NCBI RefSeq assembly: GCF_051903065.1
Contig: NZ_CP178438.1
Reading direction: 5' to 3' (one strand)
DNA from: Escherichia coli
Lineage (GTDB): Bacteria; Pseudomonadota; Gammaproteobacteria; Enterobacterales; Enterobacteriaceae
Length of the DNA stretch: 64,000 bases
Both the position numbers and the translations under genes were made by a program. Under the pieces are notes generated by a model. That model saw only the letters and a program-made list of their open reading frames with translations, did no database searches and was not told the DNA's origin. The first letter of the stretch is position 1. Each line of letters starts with the position of its first letter. Positions 2,653 through 31,225 of the stretch are shown here, piece after piece.

Positions 2653-3708
2653 ATGCGTAAAATCATTCATGTGGATATGGACTGCTTTTTCGCCGCAGTG
2701 GAGATGCGCGACAATCCCGCCCTGCGCGATATCCCTATTGCTATTGGCGGCAGCCGCGAACGTCGGGGGGTGATCAGCACCGCCAATTATCCCGCGCGTA
2801 AATTTGGCGTACGCAGCGCTATGCCGACAGGGATGGCGCTCAAATTATGCCCACATCTCACCTTGCTTCCGGGGCGCTTTGACGCCTACAAAGAAGCCTC
2901 AAATCATATCCGTGAAATCTTCTCGCGCTACACCTCTCGCATTGAGCCGTTGTCACTGGATGAGGCTTATCTCGATGTCACCGACAGCGTCCATTGCCAC
3001 GGTTCTGCGACCCTCATCGCCCAGGAAATCCGCCAGACGATTTTCAGCGAGCTGCAACTGACGGCGTCTGCGGGCGTGGCGCCAGTAAAGTTTCTCGCCA
3101 AAATCGCCTCCGACATGAATAAACCCAACGGCCAGTTTGTGATTACGCCGGCAGAAGTTCCGACATTTTTACAAACCTTACCACTGGCAAAAATCCCCGG
3201 CGTCGGCAAAGTCTCGGCGGCAAAACTGGAAGCGATGGGGCTGCGGACCTGCGGTGATGTACAAAAGTGTGATCTGGTGATTCTGCTTAAACGCTTTGGC
3301 AAATTTGGCCGCATTTTGTGGGAGCGTAGTCAGGGGATTGACGAGCGCGACGTTAACAGCGAACGGTTACGAAAATCCGTCGGCGTGGAACGCACGATGG
3401 CGGAAGATATTCATCACTGGTCTGAATGTGAAGCGATTATCGAGCGGCTGTATCCGGAACTTGAACGCCGTCTGGCAAAGGTAAAACCTGATTTACTGAT
3501 TGCTCGCCAGGGAGTGAAATTAAAGTTCGACGATTTTCAGCAAACCACTCAGGAGCACGTCTGGCCGCGGCTGAATAAAGCTGACTTAATCGCCACCGCG
3601 CGTAAAACCTGGGATGAACGCCGCGGCGGGCGAGGTGTGCGACTGGTGGGGCTGCATGTGACGTTGCTTGACCCGCAAATGGAAAGACAACTGGTGCTGG
3701 GATTATGA
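2653..3708 (+). CDS. dinB: DNA polymerase IV
   Basis: 351 aa, N-terminus [22 protein letters not shown] characteristic of Y-family polymerase DinB. Confidence 0.95.
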
Positions 3709-24510: not shown

Positions 24511-24529
24511 ACGGCCATATTGGCCGTCA
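24511..24529. terminator. bidirectional hairpin between Q and cargo operon
   Basis: Perfect palindrome GACGGCCA-TAT-TGGCCGTC. Confidence 0.55.
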
Positions 24530-25714
24530 GCTAAATAAATATGTAATAGCATAAGGCGTAAGTAAAAAGTAGAACCTAAATGTAAGATATAAGCCACATA
24601 AAACTATAATTCCTAATGAGGCAAAAACAACTTTCTGAACAAGCAATCTTGTGGTTAAACTATCAAATGTATCCTTTATATCTTCGTAAATAGCCTTGAA
24701 GTTATATTCTGCTTGTTGTTTTTTATGATTTAACTCATCATTTATTGCTGTTAAAGTTTGCCATTGATTAAATAGAACAAATAGAATCATAATAGTGAAG
24801 AACAATGCACCCAACACTACAGCTGTATTTATTAATGCTTGACTATCCCAACCATTAGCCTGCTTCATTTGAGTCGCAACGATAATTGTTGCGACGGGGA
24901 TACCTAATATCTGATTTTGTATGTCACTGAATACTTTATGTATTTTTCCCATCTCTTCTATTTTGGCTACTCGTAACTGATCCAGTATTTTCTCGTAAGA
25001 AAAACCAGAAACGAATACTTTGTATCCTTTTTGATAACTTTCATAAAGTTGTCCTAAATCCCTTAACATGAAGGAAAAAGAGGTTTCTTTAGTTTTAGAT
25101 TCACATGATGATTTTATGCTACTTGCTAAAATAGTAAGTTTTTGATCTTTATGCGTATCTTCTGCAAAGTTTGCGATCAAATTATGAATCAGATCTCCAT
25201 TAACATTCATAAGATCATCGCTAGAATAATTTACTGGAATTTTTAGTACGTTGGATTCGACGAATACCAATTCAAAATTTGTTTCATCTAAATAAGCAGA
25301 ACAATCTTTGAATAAAGTAATTAAGCTCAAAACATCTCTGTACTTGGATATAATAGCAGGCGACTTTTTATCCCTGTTGTGATAATTAAGTTCGATTATA
25401 AAGAAGTTACTGGCTTCCTTTATCCTATTTTTAGGATTTTTTAAATACTCATTAAAAGAGAAATGTAGCTGCCCCAATCGTAATTTGGGGGGGGTTATAT
25501 GTAAGGTTATAGTTTGGCCTAACTCAATGTTGCCAGATTCAAGGGTGATGCCAAAATCATGGGGATTCTCTGTGATATCGTTGATGATGTCACAGAGCTC
25601 CTCGTTTGAAAGAATGAGTGATGCTTCAGATAGGGTACCTGCAAATGTAGCGGCCTTGTAAATAGTCACTAAGTCTTTGAAGGTTCTCTGATTGTTACTG
25701 CTCATCCTCTTCAC
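24527..25714 (-). CDS. membrane protein with two C-terminal TM helices (candidate effector)
   Basis: 395 aa; hydrophobic helices ALINTAVVLGALFFTIMILFVLF and VVFASLGIIVLCGLYLTFRFYFLL; AT-rich by eye; start overlaps upstream gene stop. Confidence 0.7.
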   Translation of the reverse strand: MKRMSSNNQRTFKDLVTIYKAATFAGTLSEASLILSNEELCDIINDITENPHDFGITLESGNIELGQTITLHITPPKLRLGQLHFSFNEYLKNPKNRIKEASNFFIIELNYHNRDKKSPAIISKYRDVLSLITLFKDCSAYLDETNFELVFVESNVLKIPVNYSSDDLMNVNGDLIHNLIANFAEDTHKDQKLTILASSIKSSCESKTKETSFSFMLRDLGQLYESYQKGYKVFVSGFSYEKILDQLRVAKIEEMGKIHKVFSDIQNQILGIPVATIIVATQMKQANGWDSQALINTAVVLGALFFTIMILFVLFNQWQTLTAINDELNHKKQQAEYNFKAIYEDIKDTFDSLTTRLLVQKVVFASLGIIVLCGLYLTFRFYFLLTPYAITYLFS

Positions 25715-26729
25715 CTAATTCTGATAAAATCTCTGATCTTAGCGTATCCGGAATCTCGGTAAGTATCAATTTATCGTTTTCTGAATCATAAAGAACGCTG
25801 CCATCATGCAAGGCCGCACGCTCGAATTTCAGAGACCAATGTTTGGACTTTCCTTTGAAACTAACAAGCCCACGTATAACGTTGCCATCAGGCACGAACC
25901 CATCAGAGAACTCCAGATCGTCATTGGTTAACTTTTCAACTAACAACTCAGGAGCAGTTGGCCATATCTCGTTTGCAAAAACTTGAGTGTCGAAAGCTTC
26001 ACCAGAACGATTTAAATTTTTTAATTTTTCATGAGCCTTATTTAGGAACTCTTCACGTGCCTCTGGTTCAAAACCTCTTTCAGTAGCAAATTCTAAAAGT
26101 GCATTCCGTAATTTTGTTGTTTCTTGTTTGGCAATTAGAATATCGTTACAACCTAAAAACTTTTTGAAATAACCTGCTACTGAATTTTGCCCCTTTAGAA
26201 AGCTAATATATCTCTCTTTGCCATTCTGGCGCCCAGTTAAGTCAATTCGTCCCGCTACTCGAAGTTTAGCAATGTCTAGATATTCACTTTCTTGAATTTC
26301 AAAATCGTGGACTGAAGAGCCAACTGCTGATGTTAGGATTGCAACCATCAAATAATGATTTCCATTTACCTCATTATGGGCAATTATTACATAACCACCA
26401 GTAGACATTGATTCATCATCGGCTCTGGCTTTTAAATGATTGATCATTCGGATACTAGTATCATAAAAACTATGTGTTTTATTTACGAAATAATCATCAA
26501 CGATATTACCCATAGGGTAACTATCGCGGTCATCTTCAAATTTACCATATCCTTTACCTGCTCTCCCAGAGTACCTTTCAGTAAGTGCGTTAGAGAGGTC
26601 TTTTGATGCTTGCTGAACAGGTTTTTCTGAAGGACAAGGAATAATGGTGGCTAACCCCTGTTGTTCCTTGTTCATAATGTGAACAATAAACTTATGAGTG
26701 ATATTAGTGGGGGTCGCTGATGCAGTCAT
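25695..26729 (-). CDS. NdpA/YejK-like (NA37 family) nucleoid-associated-type protein
   Basis: 344 aa; collinear motifs with E. coli YejK as recalled (YLMVAILTSAVGS, DIAKLRVAGRIDLT, RYISFLKGQ); AGGA RBS upstream of ATG. Confidence 0.65.
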   Translation of the reverse strand: MTASATPTNITHKFIVHIMNKEQQGLATIIPCPSEKPVQQASKDLSNALTERYSGRAGKGYGKFEDDRDSYPMGNIVDDYFVNKTHSFYDTSIRMINHLKARADDESMSTGGYVIIAHNEVNGNHYLMVAILTSAVGSSVHDFEIQESEYLDIAKLRVAGRIDLTGRQNGKERYISFLKGQNSVAGYFKKFLGCNDILIAKQETTKLRNALLEFATERGFEPEAREEFLNKAHEKLKNLNRSGEAFDTQVFANEIWPTAPELLVEKLTNDDLEFSDGFVPDGNVIRGLVSFKGKSKHWSLKFERAALHDGSVLYDSENDKLILTEIPDTLRSEILSELGEEDEQ

Positions 26730-27019: not shown

Positions 27020-27346
27020 ATGCCTCATAACCCAAATACCTGGCTGGAGTTGGTCCAGAGCTGGTGGCGTGGAGACACACCGCTGGGCGCAGTGATTATG
27101 TCGATTGTTATGGCTGGTTTGCGCATTGCCTATTTTGGCGGTGGTGGTGGCTGGAAGCGAAAAACACTCGAAATTCTACTCTGTGGCGCTCTGACGCTGA
27201 CTTTTGCATCCGCTCTTGAGTATGTCGGATGGCCTAAATCGCTTTCTGTTGCCATTGGTGGTGGGGTGGGGCTGATCGGTGTCGATGCTATTCGTGGGGC
27301 TGCAATGAGAGTAATCGGTAATAAGTTTGGTGGCTCTAAGGAGTAA
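27020..27346 (+). CDS. holin
   Basis: 108 aa small membrane protein with TM segments, directly upstream of endolysin. Confidence 0.8.
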   Translation: MPHNPNTWLELVQSWWRGDTPLGAVIMSIVMAGLRIAYFGGGGGWKRKTLEILLCGALTLTFASALEYVGWPKSLSVAIGGGVGLIGVDAIRGAAMRVIGNKFGGSKE

Positions 27347-27349
27347 TTT

Positions 27350-27826
27350 ATGCAGGTACTAAATTCCCAGCGTAAAGCTTTCCTCGATATGGTGGCATGG
27401 TCAGAAGGAACGGATAACGGGCGACAACCGACACGTAACCACGGTTATGATATTATTGTTGGTGGTGAACTATTCACTGATTACTCCGATCACCCTCGCA
27501 AACTTGTCACGCTAAACCCCAAACTCAAATCAACAGCTGCAGGCCGTTATCAACTTCTTTCACGCTGGTGGGATGCTTACCGCAAGCAGCTTGGGCTGAA
27601 AGACTTCTCTCCAAAAAGCCAGGATGCTGTGGCATTGCAGCAGATTAAAGAGCGTGGCGCTTTACCGATGATTGATCGCGGCGATATTCGTCAGGCTATC
27701 GATCGTTGCAGCAATATCTGGGCTTCACTGCCGGGCGCTGGTTACGGTCAATATGAACATAAAATAGGTGACCTGATTGCCCGATTCAAAGAGGCTGGCG
27801 GGGTGGTAAATGAAGTTGAGCTATAA
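27350..27826 (+). CDS. R: endolysin (lambda R-type lytic transglycosylase)
   Basis: 158 aa, NSQRKAFLDMVAWSEGTDNGRQPTRNHGYDIIVGGELFTDYSDHPRKLV close to lambda R. Confidence 0.92.
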   Translation: MQVLNSQRKAFLDMVAWSEGTDNGRQPTRNHGYDIIVGGELFTDYSDHPRKLVTLNPKLKSTAAGRYQLLSRWWDAYRKQLGLKDFSPKSQDAVALQQIKERGALPMIDRGDIRQAIDRCSNIWASLPGAGYGQYEHKIGDLIARFKEAGGVVNEVEL

Positions 27827-28202
27827 GCTGGTTATCGCAGCATTCTTCTCTACTGTCATCGGTTCTTTCATCTGGTCTGCTAACCACTACTACAGCAAAT
27901 ATCAGCACGAAAAGAAACGTGCTGATGAGGCTGTACAAAATGCTGAATCCGCAACCGCTATTACCAATAATGTCCTGCAATCACTGCAAATCGTCAATAC
28001 AGTTCTGGAGGCTAACCAGCATGCAAAACAGCAGATCGCACTGGAGTCACAGAGAACCCAGGAAGATATCAAAGTGGCTGTTGAGAATGATGATTGCGCT
28101 TCCCGTCTTGTTCCTGCTCGTGCAACTGAGCGGCTGCGCCGGTACGCGGACAATTTACGTACCAGTTCCGGCGGTACCACTACCGGCGAACCTGACCGCT
28201 GA
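27810..28202 (+). CDS. Rz: i-spanin Rz
   Basis: 130 aa, N-terminal TM then coiled-coil; overlaps the endolysin end. Confidence 0.8.
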   Translation: MKLSYKLVIAAFFSTVIGSFIWSANHYYSKYQHEKKRADEAVQNAESATAITNNVLQSLQIVNTVLEANQHAKQQIALESQRTQEDIKVAVENDDCASRLVPARATERLRRYADNLRTSSGGTTTGEPDR

Positions 28203-28344
28203 AACCCCACAGCCAGCTATTCCTGATCCGCTGACTTACAGAGATAGTCTGGATTTAAACGTGAGCCTGCTGTCAGTGCTGGCTGCCTGTAATAGGGATA
28301 AGGCTGATATTCGTAAAATTGAAGCAGAGAAGAGTGAGCCATGA
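28087..28344 (+). CDS. Rz1: o-spanin Rz1 (lipoprotein, overlapped architecture)
   Basis: Starts within Rz in the +1 frame; signal peptide with lipobox LSGC; Pro-rich. Confidence 0.65.
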   Translation: MMIALPVLFLLVQLSGCAGTRTIYVPVPAVPLPANLTAETPQPAIPDPLTYRDSLDLNVSLLSVLAACNRDKADIRKIEAEKSEP

Positions 28345-28538
28345 AGCAGTAAAGTGGAAAGATCGCAGCAAGAAGTGCCTGTTCAGAATTAATGAAGATG
28401 CCTCAAATACCTAAAATAGCGAGTAGCCAGATGCACGTCAACTACGAGTGTGTGGCCAGCATAACGTTGTATAAACTAAGTGATAGCAGAGTTCAATATA
28501 CGTATACTGAGAGAACTATTTCTATTTGAGAACTGAAA

Positions 28539-29132
28539 ATGACGGACTATACTTTTTTTTACTGGATAGAGATGCTTCTTAAAGAAGGCAATGTTTTATT
28601 TATTGTTCTTGCTTGTTTGATTGTCTTTTTTACTTTAAAAAAAGAAATAATAATGGTTTTAGGTCGTCTTAATACAGTTAAGCTAGGTGACTATGAGATT
28701 AAATTTAAAAAAGAAATGTTTGAAATAGAATCTAAAAGTATAGAGGTTATTAAAAATTTACCTGGAACAAATCCTGTCCTGCCGACACAACTCATTGAGA
28801 ATTTCAATATTTTTGAGAGTCTTGCTAGTACTCAGCCTAATGTTGCTGTACTTTCAGCTTGGCGCGAATTGGAGTTAACCGCTATAACGCTTGCATCTAA
28901 AAAGGGGGTTGAGATCAACGGGACATCTTTAGGGCGGGCTTCAGGTATCGCTGCCTTGAAAAATGTCCAATCTGCAAACAAAATTTCTAGTGACATTGTT
29001 AAGCTTTATGAAAAAACAGGAGAGTCTATTAAGCCTATATCCCAAGGAAAGCTCTTATGTACTCAGGAAGATGCTTTGGCATTCTGTAAGAATGCAAAAA
29101 GACTTAGCAATTATTTAACATCCATATTTTAG
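28539..29132 (+). CDS. hypothetical membrane-anchored moron protein
   Basis: 197 aa, N-terminal TM helix (VLFIVLACLIVFFTL), AT-rich by eye. Confidence 0.55.
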   Translation: MTDYTFFYWIEMLLKEGNVLFIVLACLIVFFTLKKEIIMVLGRLNTVKLGDYEIKFKKEMFEIESKSIEVIKNLPGTNPVLPTQLIENFNIFESLASTQPNVAVLSAWRELELTAITLASKKGVEINGTSLGRASGIAALKNVQSANKISSDIVKLYEKTGESIKPISQGKLLCTQEDALAFCKNAKRLSNYLTSIF

Positions 29133-29174
29133 TATGTATCCATAGAGCATCCATTATTATTGGAGTAGTCGTTA

Positions 29175-29201
29175 CAGCAGGCATTCACTGAGTGCCTGCT
29201 G
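29175..29201. terminator. bidirectional hairpin between convergent moron genes
   Basis: CAGCAGGCA-loop-TGCCTGCTG inverted repeat. Confidence 0.5.
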
Positions 29202-29208
29202 CTGAACT

Positions 29209-29421
29209 CTAATAGCAAGATGGAGAATCTGCATTAAATTTTTGAGAGAGATTACTTATTTCATTCACTCCCTTATGATTAAGTAATAGCCTAATATTTT
29301 CTGGAGCCTTGAATATAAATGGGCCTTTTAGATCCTCGATGATTCCTCCTGCGACGCAGATCAAATGCTTGAAATCAACATCTTCAATTGTGGGCTTGGA
29401 GTCCAGATTATCGCTTGTCAT
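29209..29421 (-). CDS. small hypothetical protein
   Basis: 70 aa ORF convergent with the preceding moron; AT-rich. Confidence 0.4.
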   Translation of the reverse strand: MTSDNLDSKPTIEDVDFKHLICVAGGIIEDLKGPFIFKAPENIRLLLNHKGVNEISNLSQKFNADSPSCY

Positions 29422-29550
29422 TTAAAAACATCCTTTCTTGCCATTAGCAGCATTGAGCATGTTATGGAATCTGTAATTTAGGATGCTGGTACTACCAGTA
29501 CTTTTTTTGTTTCATTTTGTGAATCACCTCATTTACGAGGGGAGCCTATC

Positions 29551-29901
29551 ATGCCACCACGAACACCAAAAGCCTGCCGTGTTCGCGGCTGCCGCTCTAC
29601 AACCACAGACCCTTCAGGCTACTGCGAAAGCCACAAAAGCGAAGGCTGGAAGCAATACAAAACTGGACAATCCCGTCATCAGCGCGGCTACGGTTCGAAG
29701 TGGGACAGTATCCGCGCGCGTGTCCTGAAGCGTGACAAAGGCCTGTGTCAGTTATGTCTGCGTGCTGGTGTGGTGCGTGAGGCGAAGACCGTTGACCACA
29801 TCATCCCTAAATCGCATGGCGGCACTGATGTCGACAGTAATCTGCAGAGTTTGTGCTGGCCGTGTCATAAGGCGAAGACGGCCCGTGAACGGCTGAAGTA
29901 A
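29551..29901 (+). CDS. HNH endonuclease (terminase-associated)
   Basis: 116 aa with Cys-rich N-terminus and HNH core (VDHIIPKSHGG...CWPCH), directly upstream of the terminase genes. Confidence 0.85.
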   Translation: MPPRTPKACRVRGCRSTTTDPSGYCESHKSEGWKQYKTGQSRHQRGYGSKWDSIRARVLKRDKGLCQLCLRAGVVREAKTVDHIIPKSHGGTDVDSNLQSLCWPCHKAKTARERLK

Positions 29902-30017: not shown

Positions 30018-30521
30018 GTGCCGCATATGGCTGGAACGGCGGGGCGTTCCGGGCGTCGCCCCAAGCCAACGGCGCGCAAGGCGCTGGCCGGAAACCCCGG
30101 CAAGCGAGCCCTGAACAAAGATGAACCTGTTTTTACGCCCATCAAAGGTGTTGAGCCACCGGAGTGGTTCGCTGAAGAGGATCTCCCTCTCGCCACGATC
30201 ATGTGGCAACTGACAACCAAAGAACTCTGCGGTCAGGGCCTGCTGTGCGTGACTGACCTAGCGGTACTTGAGCGGTGGTGCGTGGCCTATGAGTTCTGGC
30301 GACGTGCCGTGAAAAATATTGCCAAACAGGGCAACACCATCACCGGTGCAATGGGCGGTATGGTCAAAAATCCGGAGCTGACCGCCAAAAAAGAACAGGA
30401 GTCCGAGATGAGCAGTACGGGGGCAATGCTCGGACTCGACCCCAGCAGCCGCCAGCGTCTGATTGGCCTGGCGGGGAAGAAGAAAGCCACTAACCCGTTT
30501 CTGAAAATCATCGAATCATGA
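30018..30521 (+). CDS. terminase small subunit (P27 family)
   Basis: 167 aa, basic N-terminus, position between HNH and the large terminase. Confidence 0.75.
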
Positions 30522-31225
30522 GCCGGAAATCTTACCCCAACGTAAATGCTGCCAATCAGTATGCCCGGGATGTCGTGCGCGGAAAGATTGTGGCCTGCCA
30601 GTTTGTGATTCAGGCCTGCCAGCGCCATCTTGATGACCTGATGGCGGAAAAAAGTAAGTCGTTTCGTTACCGCTTCGACAAGGACCTGGCTGAACGGGCC
30701 GCCAAATTTATTCAGCTGTTGCCGCACACCAAGGGTGAGTGGGCATTCAAGAGGATGCCCATCACGCTGGAGCCGTGGCAGCTCTTTGTGATCTGCTGCG
30801 CGTTTGGCTGGGTCAATAAAGGCTCCCGGCTGCGCCGCTTCCGTGAGGTGTATACCGAAATCCCCCGTAAGAACGGCAAATCGGCAATCTCTGCCGGTGT
30901 CGCCCTGTATTGTTTTGCCTGTGATAACGAGTTTGGCGCGGAAGTGTATTCCGGTGCCACGACAGAGAAACAGGCGTGGGAAGTCTTTCGCCCGGCGCGA
31001 CTGATGTGTAAACGCACACCCATGCTGACGGAAGCGTTCGGGATTGAGGTTAACGCCTCAAACATGAACCGTCCGGAGGATGGCGCGCGGTTTGAACCGC
31101 TGATCGGTAACCCCGGTGATGGATCATCACCCCACTGTGCGGTGGTGGATGAATATCACGAGCACGCCACCGATGCGCTTTACACCACGATGCTTACCGG
31201 GATGGGGCGCGACGTCAGCCACTGA
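30518..31225 (+). CDS. terminase large subunit, N-terminal fragment (ATPase), ends at a frameshift
   Basis: Walker B-like VVDEYHEH; reading frame terminates after ...[10 protein letters not shown]. Confidence 0.85.

Follow-up and report, generated by a model that had tools for sequence, protein, structure and literature searches.

What is encoded in the AT-rich interval of ~1.2 kb (1206 bp, 28345–29550) that lies exactly between the Rz1 gene and the HNH/terminase genes of an Escherichia coli prophage, and what might its product do? We addressed this question in a 64,000-nt window of contig NZ_CP178438.1 (GCF_051903065.1), to which all coordinates refer; RefSeq annotation was taken from an identical E. 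coli region, where locus coordinate + 20344 equals window coordinate. The host element is an HK97-like lambdoid prophage. The interval holds a 197-aa open reading frame (ORF; 28539–29132, + strand; WP_104773370, “hypothetical protein”; phrog_30030), a hairpin and a convergent 70-aa ORF, all where an earlier sequence-only reading of the window had placed them. We see the 197-aa protein as a catalytically degenerate variant, carried by phages and packaged as a moron, of an uncharacterised family of transmembrane (TM)-DUF4145 proteins. For its function we tentatively favor, at a little short of even confidence, a lysogen-made, non-catalytic inner-membrane effector or sensor in phage–phage or phage–host conflict.

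The 197-aa product is predicted to be bitopic, crossing the inner membrane once: a short N-terminal tail would lie in the periplasm, followed by a single TM helix, a stalk and a four-helix domain in the cytoplasm. Hydropathy and conservation place the TM anchor at residues ~17–33 (nt 28587–28637): this is the best 17-residue window (residues 17–33, mean Kyte–Doolittle hydropathy 2.64), and the helix is kept in homologues down to 36% identity, in agreement with the single N-terminal TM helix of the sequence-only reading. It is followed by a conserved juxtamembrane or stalk helix (residues 34–72) and by a HEPN/DUF4145-like helical bundle (residues 83–196, nt 28785–29126). The fold assignment rests on an AlphaFold2 model built from an eight-sequence alignment (predicted local distance difference test, pLDDT, 78.8), which has one long helix for TM segment and stalk (residues 19–72) and, at residues 83–196, what appears to be the four-helix up–down bundle of HEPN proteins. 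A strongly hydrophobic segment stands at the N-terminus in 95% of 138 family members, and Lys + Arg average 0.49 before the TM segment versus 3.53 after it; by these positive-inside statistics the HEPN domain would face the cytoplasm. A periplasmic location, prompted by two invariant Cys residues (C174 and C183), was rejected on the same statistics. We also rejected a start at M39, where the PHROG profile begins, since every diverged homologue, like the profile–profile alignment, retains the TM region.

Direct family scans are uninformative about both ORFs, which have no significant Pfam, PADLOC or NCBIfam match and only PHROG families of unknown function; this agrees with the earlier description of them as unrelated to lysis or packaging. 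Profile comparisons reach further. A search of 1.84 billion representatives recovered 263 relatives of the 197-aa protein, mostly of similar length; 12 of 38 sampled relatives match PF13643 and others match HEPN_RiboL-PSP, Swt1 or HepT. DUF4145 belongs to the HEPN clan (PF13643, CL0291), and TM fusions were listed by Anantharaman et al. 2013 (PMC3710099). Alignment to an active subgroup with hhalign gave 99.4% probability (E 2e-21) across 182 columns that include the TM segment and the juxtamembrane motif, and structure matches in AFDB50 (TM-scores 0.65–0.77) are annotated DUF4145. Because the window protein itself falls under every Pfam threshold, its membership is transitive, by way of these relatives. 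Judged by fold and homology, the 197-aa protein is a member of the HEPN/DUF4145 superfamily that appears catalytically degenerate.

The degeneracy concerns the catalytic motif. At the start of the last core helix, the family consensus LRxLRNxAxH is the canonical Rx4H motif; the window protein instead reads TGESIKPISQG, so that I164 takes the place of the Arg and S168 or Q169 that of the His. Both R and H stand at the aligned columns in 117/156 family sequences, and neither is found in any of nine prophage-clade sequences, which carry I/V in place of the Arg, S/Q/K/E in place of the His and no invariant His anywhere. The Rx4-6H motif of the HEPN superfamily is absent from the 197-aa protein and, because both catalytic residues are replaced in the prophage clade, RNA cleavage is unlikely (most likely there is none). 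The clade does keep the helix-1 motif AWRELE, together with an invariant set comprising R133-A-S-G136, K141, Y157, G161, K165, S168, G170, C174, D178, C183, N185 and K187 and the further polar or charged residues R109, E110 and E112. Its closest active subclade, which includes Pseudomonas and Stutzerimonas members, shares RVSGIAA, and some of those members lack the His only; other named relatives come from Vibrio, Aeromonas, Frankia and others. We propose that the prophage clade descends from a widespread ~190-aa membrane-anchored DUF4145 family bearing the Rx4H ribonuclease (RNase) motif. What had been read as an uncharacterised C-terminal domain is thus of HEPN/DUF4145 type by structure prediction and profile searches, with its catalytic motif lost.

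The 197-aa gene is a genuine one that evolves under purifying selection. Six E. coli copies together carry five synonymous and two nonsynonymous single-nucleotide polymorphisms (SNPs) in it, and between lineages the ratio of nonsynonymous to synonymous divergence (dN/dS) is 0.12–0.41 where dS is estimable (0.32 for the unsaturated pair L003/L008). Homologues among 5.8 billion proteins form only seven 90%-identity clusters (47–99% identity), to which a full hidden Markov model search added a 36%-identical prophage protein of Yersinia enterocolitica/kristensenii/frederiksenii, and sequence similarity places the protein in a small clade from Enterobacterales prophages (E. coli, Yersinia). The gene lies directly downstream of the spanin genes, its only conserved neighbors, and in the same orientation as they do in five of seven diverged lineages (window, L002, L003/L004, L012 and L025). 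The other two (L005 and L008) are in different accessory contexts, with no recognisable lysis genes adjacent.

Three smaller observations concern individual copies of the gene. The gene downstream of the L005 homologue (2683–3129) encodes a 148-aa protein with an N-terminal TM helix, a helical C-terminal part and phrog_6169 (unknown function), and may be a second membrane-anchored accessory protein. The 172-aa L008 homologue, P0007, is a truncated gene call (~1170–1250): MDVIFKWVEMLLKEG..., the N-terminus conserved in the family, is encoded upstream of it, so the real gene must extend further or contain a frameshift. Finally, a T8 homopolymer (28551–28558) spans codons 5–7 of the window gene; strain AR_0061 has a 1-bp deletion in it, for which the Prokaryotic Genome Annotation Pipeline (PGAP) calls a 186-aa product from Met12 that still includes the TM helix, and this could be a slippage-prone site or a sequencing artefact.

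The module that carries this gene is AT-rich and moves horizontally, as cargo of the variable slot that separates the spanin genes from HNH/terminase. To its left on the + strand are a holin (27020–27346), a GH24 endolysin (27350–27826) and a DUF2570/Rz-like i-spanin (27810–28202), all from the ORF list and RefSeq annotation, and an overlapping Rz1-like LysC o-spanin (28021–28344) that ends the lysis cassette. To its right, also on the + strand, are an HNH endonuclease (29551–29901; same sources) and a P27-family small terminase (from ~30027), followed by the large terminase (30518–32250). GC content is 29–40% across 28350–29550 versus 44–52% in the lysis genes and 56–59% in HNH/terminase. The 197-aa gene itself has 34% GC versus 50% in the left flank and 57% in the right flank, and in every lineage its 33–36% compares with left flanks of 44–54%.

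The 1206-bp interval is present in 19/5426 complete E. coli genomes, always entire and at at least 98.9% identity. A flank-inclusive search found ~3000 genomes that share parts of the lysis or HNH/terminase flanks, and we compared slot content among the sister prophages that share both (L013–L018). The slot holds a GrlR-family gene in L013, a DUF6236 gene in L014, a minus-strand iss (bor homologue) between spanin and HNH in L015, a DUF2441 gene in L016 and an unrelated 83-aa minus-strand ORF in L018, and it is empty in L017, where the spanin–HNH gap is 183 bp. Homology with these prophages ends by ~28330 at the latest and restarts exactly at the HNH ATG, 29551. The module is a moron in two respects: it is inserted between genes that are adjacent in a related prophage (L017), and gene and flanks contrast in GC in all seven lineages. 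The sequence-only reading had called the position a recurrent cargo site and proposed a comparison across related prophages; that comparison, with variable cargo between conserved flanks, supports it. Carriers of the module are mosaic prophages with differing Q antiterminators, holins and Q–holin cargo. Searches of 50,697 deposited phage genomes (megablast for DNA, tblastn for protein) did not recover the module, and its copies in IMG/VR are 99%-identical ones only.

Other parts of these prophages also vary. The Q-to-holin slot of prophages with the same 197-aa module or its relative holds differing cargo and is a second cargo hot spot (L019 1528–3394, L020 854–3599, L025 763–2376). One such slot contains a three-gene set with a STAS-like protein (no PADLOC match for the two flanking proteins tested), another a DNA methyltransferase, and that of the Yersinia prophage an AAA_15/AAA_21 ATPase resembling NsnB/AriA/OLD. 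The window has its own AT-rich island between antiterminator Q and holin (24527–26729, − strand, 30–42% GC), which encodes a 344-aa YejK/NdpA-like nucleoid-associated protein (NAP; 25695–26729) and a 395-aa protein with C-terminal TM helices (24527–25714). PADLOC found no match for this island, and NCBIfam gave sub-threshold matches to the anti-phage models DS1_1/DS1_2 (2.4e-15, 1.6e-19) and to YejK (2.4e-48). The island recalls both the DS-1 system of DefensePredictor (PMC13092281) and abortive-infection systems of the “NAP sensor + effector” type (bioRxiv 10.64898/2026.04.06.716658), and is probably a divergent defence moron. The large terminase of the window is interrupted near ~31203, where a G-run has lost 1 bp (GGGG versus GGGGG in the otherwise matching intact 577-aa gene of E. 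coli 23CRST027), leaving ORFs of 235 and 341 aa; this reflects either a sequencing error or a packaging-defective prophage.

The 197-aa gene appears to travel with its own transcription signals. In its 194-bp leader (28345–28538, + strand), a sigma-70-like promoter candidate, GTGATA-17-TATACT (28480–28508), matches the consensus at 9/12 positions, and its −10 hexamer ends 30 nt before the ATG. The arrangement AAGTGAyA-17-GTAnAAT recurs in the same register upstream of the ATG in six diverged lineages, with the −10 hexamer ending 29–32 nt before the ATG in the four lineages scored by a threshold scan; upstream gaps range from 70 to 304 bp, and the non-coding DNA around the element has diverged. 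Among E. coli copies the leader carries 8 SNPs in 194 bp, all at or before 28454, and the highest SNP density of the module lies 5′ of 28455. From this conservation we infer that the element acts as a promoter. Another promoter match (28526–28553) was rejected since its −10 hexamer falls inside the ORF, and a 45-aa ORF in the leader (28392–28529) is probably no gene.

At the other end, a GC-rich hairpin with a 12-bp stem and 3-nt loop (29175–29201) starts 43 nt past the stop codon. It is strongly stable in a 76-nt context (−37.1 kcal/mol, z = −6.4, 0/200 shuffles equally stable), is invariant in six E. coli copies and folds on both strands (−22.7 and −20.4 kcal/mol), which bears out its earlier description as bidirectional; no U-tract follows the stem on either strand. 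It may end the transcript of the 197-aa gene or stabilise it. Canonical hairpin and T-run terminators stand directly past the stop codon in L003, L008 and L012, and a plain hairpin is at the equivalent position in the Yersinia lineage L025. An Rfam scan of 28200–29700 gave chance-level matches only, all outside the module, so the 29133–29550 stretch has no known RNA-element explanation. Closer to the HNH gene, ~40 nt before its start, is a terminator-like stem-loop with a T7 run (29484–29510, + strand); it varies between E. coli copies (SNPs/indel at 29490, 29500 and 29502) and, being on the late-operon strand, would require Q-mediated read-through by late transcription.

What would such a module do? 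We picture it as an autonomous AT-rich transcription unit composed of its own sigma-70-type promoter, one ORF and a trailing hairpin. The 197-aa gene would be transcribed from its own promoter in the lysogen and would also be read through by late transcription, and its product would act at the inner membrane without nuclease chemistry, possibly as a superinfection-exclusion or abortive-infection-type effector or sensor. Oligomerisation could occur through the HEPN domain, as Csx28 does in forming a depolarising pore. Lysogen expression, oligomerisation and any defence phenotype are presented here as predictions. A role in conflict is supported by the presence of lysogenic-conversion cargo such as Iss/Bor in the same slot, by the Csx28 precedent of a TM segment joined to a divergent HEPN domain that makes a pore instead of cleaving RNA, and by validated defence proteins that carry DUF4145 or HEPN domains, namely RAZR (PMC13017515), BxaP (PMC10799925), HepS (PMC13043305) and Ishtar (bioRxiv 10.64898/2026.07.06.735840). 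It is also supported by three relatives that adjoin DUF262/HEC-05, AriA/OLD-like or BREX genes, an association with defence islands that is anecdotal, the neighborhoods of distant relatives having been drawn from a handful of contigs, most of them short (4 loci in a narrower scan).

A bolder version of this proposal is possible, although we regard it as doubtful: a phage-specific TM-HEPN/DUF4145 clade may have dropped RNase chemistry to become either a Csx28-like trigger-gated pore or sensor, which excludes competitors or tunes the phage's own lysis, or a decoy with dominant-negative action on the HEPN abortive-infection nucleases that late structural proteins trigger. If true, either would give a phage-carried HEPN domain a new mode of action and would define a single-gene system, not recognised before, that sits at the 3′ end of lysis cassettes and brings its own promoter along. 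HEPN defence genes in prophages are already familiar, and we found no description in the searchable literature of a conserved “dead” membrane-tethered HEPN protein with its own promoter at the end of a lysis cassette. Accessory slots of prophages rank among the main sources of new genes for defence and counter-defence, and few effector domains are as common in defence as HEPN/DUF4145. A hypothetical protein now becomes a defined and testable one: a tethered, presumably cytoplasm-facing HEPN domain that has lost its catalytic dyad, is kept by purifying selection and moves as a promoter–gene–terminator unit. If a phenotype exists, it would show a role for the HEPN fold without nuclease activity in a phage context (pore, sensor or decoy) and give a handle on a large uncharacterised family of active TM-DUF4145 proteins; if not, the gene is one more orphan moron.

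The alternative that survives best, although we consider it unlikely, is a late-expressed accessory of lysis or egress, made from the Q-dependent transcript with holin, endolysin and spanin and modulating inner-membrane energisation or holin triggering, hence lysis timing. The gene is on the late-operon strand and immediately 3′ of the spanin genes in most lineages, its product is a predicted inner-membrane protein, and a Csx28-like depolarisation would be expected to trigger holins. But the holins beside it are unrelated between lineages (lambda-type, Phage_holin_3_1 and Phage_holin_2_1), as are the endolysins (GH24, GH19-like and Phage_lysozyme), which argues against a specific protein partner. 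Searches of PHROG, Pfam and NCBIfam and the comparison of lineages revealed no homology to lysis families (holin, antiholin, endolysin, spanin, releasin) and no co-variation with holin or endolysin type. The gene moreover appears dispensable for lysis, since close prophages with the same endolysin and HNH flanks lack it or carry unrelated cargo, and L005 and L008 have it away from recognisable lysis genes. A conserved promoter and terminators of its own would be needless for a late-operon gene, and 0/50,697 sequenced phage genomes carry it.

Could loss of the catalytic residues itself be the function? A dead copy might co-assemble with active HEPN defence proteins through its TM helix, stalk and dimer interface, poison the composite active site and so protect the phage at induction or infection. 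HEPN RNases must dimerise to form the active site (PMC13017515, PMC3710099), homology to active TM-DUF4145 proteins is full-length, anchor and stalk included, and it is precisely the phage-borne clade that has lost both catalytic residues. An inhibitor co-expressed late would also be sensible because HEPN abortive-infection systems are triggered by late structural proteins, e.g., portal or tail tip (PMC13017515, PMC13043305). Such an anti-defence decoy nevertheless ranks second among the alternatives and seems to us improbable. No active TM-DUF4145 counterpart was identified in Enterobacterales, the closest active named members being from Pseudomonas and Stutzerimonas, and identity to active members (~20–29%) is low for co-assembly. 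Motif loss is not specific to phages, as some non-phage relatives beside BREX have also lost the His, and the promoter and terminator elements that the gene has of its own point to expression in the lysogen, not at infection.

We think it quite improbable that the protein is still a nuclease, that is, a membrane-tethered abortive-infection RNase with alternative catalytic residues (e.g., the invariant R109/E110/E112, R133, K165 and S168). The clade does have many invariant polar or charged residues, S135, K141, Y157, D178, N185 and K187 also among them, and some HEPN families that lack the canonical motif may use alternative catalytic residues (Anantharaman et al., PMC3710099). However, the clade has no invariant His, both motif positions are hydrophobic or small (I/V; S/Q/K/E), and a site of this kind has no tested precedent.

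The sequence-only reading had treated the 197-aa gene and the convergent 70-aa ORF (29209–29421, − strand) as a pair. The 70-aa ORF has phrog_22590 and a plausible ribosome-binding site (AGGA, 9 nt before the ATG). Its homologues among 5.8 billion proteins are near-identical or truncated E. coli copies only, and no counterpart adjoins any diverged 197-aa homologue, where the downstream neighbors are mutually unrelated. PGAP annotates it in none of the six RefSeq genomes inspected, a minus-strand scan upstream of it found no promoter-like site, its AlphaFold2 model is of low confidence (pLDDT 61), and its only two polymorphisms in six E. coli copies are both nonsynonymous. We considered whether it is a relative or remnant of the downstream ORFs at diverged loci or of the 83-aa slot ORF of strain D1, and found no similarity. 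A convergent two-gene system (e.g., toxin/immunity or effector/regulator) sharing a bidirectional terminator is very improbable: the two ORFs occur together in 19/19 E. coli genomes, the hairpin folds on both strands and SNP density in the 70-aa ORF is below that of flanking non-coding DNA, but the 19 copies are so similar that co-occurrence amounts to one recent module and is no independent evidence, and family scans of the 70-aa ORF gave no MNT/nucleotidyltransferase or antitoxin signature. The 70-aa ORF is doubtful as a gene and stands outside the mechanism; the module is a single-gene moron, not a pair, and with that a false lead is removed.

The reading we prefer, a non-catalytic membrane-tethered HEPN protein made in the lysogen, can be set against known systems. 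The 197-aa protein is outside the RAZR, HepS, Csx28 and HEPN-MNT families. HepS (Gifsy-1 prophage) and RAZR/PD-T7-4 (zinc finger + DUF4145) are solo or near-solo HEPN abortive-infection proteins that are soluble and need the canonical R/H (R100-H105 and R146/H154, respectively), whereas the 197-aa protein lacks these residues and is predicted to be membrane-anchored. Where RAZR has an N-terminal zinc finger, the 197-aa protein has a putative TM helix and no Cys4 ribbon, and the PADLOC PD-T7-4 models do not match it. HEPN-MNT toxin–antitoxin systems have an adjacent nucleotidyltransferase or antitoxin gene, of which the 70-aa ORF bears no signature, and no neighbor other than the upstream spanin genes is conserved among the homologues. 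Non-catalytic HEPN domains (MtlR/YggD, sacsin HEPN, Swt1 HEPN) occur in soluble regulators or in eukaryotic multidomain proteins; none of these is membrane-anchored or found in a phage context. By position the nearest parallel is Bor/Iss, given that iss occupies the same slot in L015. In lambda, the bor gene closely follows Rz and is active in lysogens; it is a small, AT-rich accessory gene associated with the envelope. Bor/Iss is, however, a lipoprotein of the outer membrane, its gene lies on the opposite strand, and neither its sequence nor its fold is related, whereas the 197-aa protein has no lipobox and is predicted to face the cytoplasm.

Two comparisons come closer. Csx28, an accessory protein of type VI-B2 CRISPR systems, joins an N-terminal TM helix to a cytoplasmic, divergent four-helix HEPN-like domain and forms an octameric depolarising pore rather than acting as a nuclease (bioRxiv 10.1101/2021.11.02.466367). 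The 197-aa protein appears to share this order of parts, a resemblance of architecture only: no sequence or structure match to Csx28 was recovered, there is no Cas13b/CRISPR context, and Csx28 retains an RX4-6H-like motif (R152/H157) that the prophage clade does not. Csx28 is still the best functional precedent for a membrane-tethered, non-nucleolytic HEPN protein. By descent, the closest match is the TM-DUF4145 family of diverse bacteria (~185–200 aa, uncharacterised), which has the same length, N-out TM anchor and AWP-type start, the juxtamembrane motif RL..KY.D.E..F and a HEPN bundle with the EAWRE.E helix. Most of that family (~75–80%) keeps LRxLRNxAxH, whereas the prophage clade reads xGxSIKPISxG, with no Arg and no His, and, unlike the family, is confined to lysis-proximal moron slots of Enterobacterales prophages.

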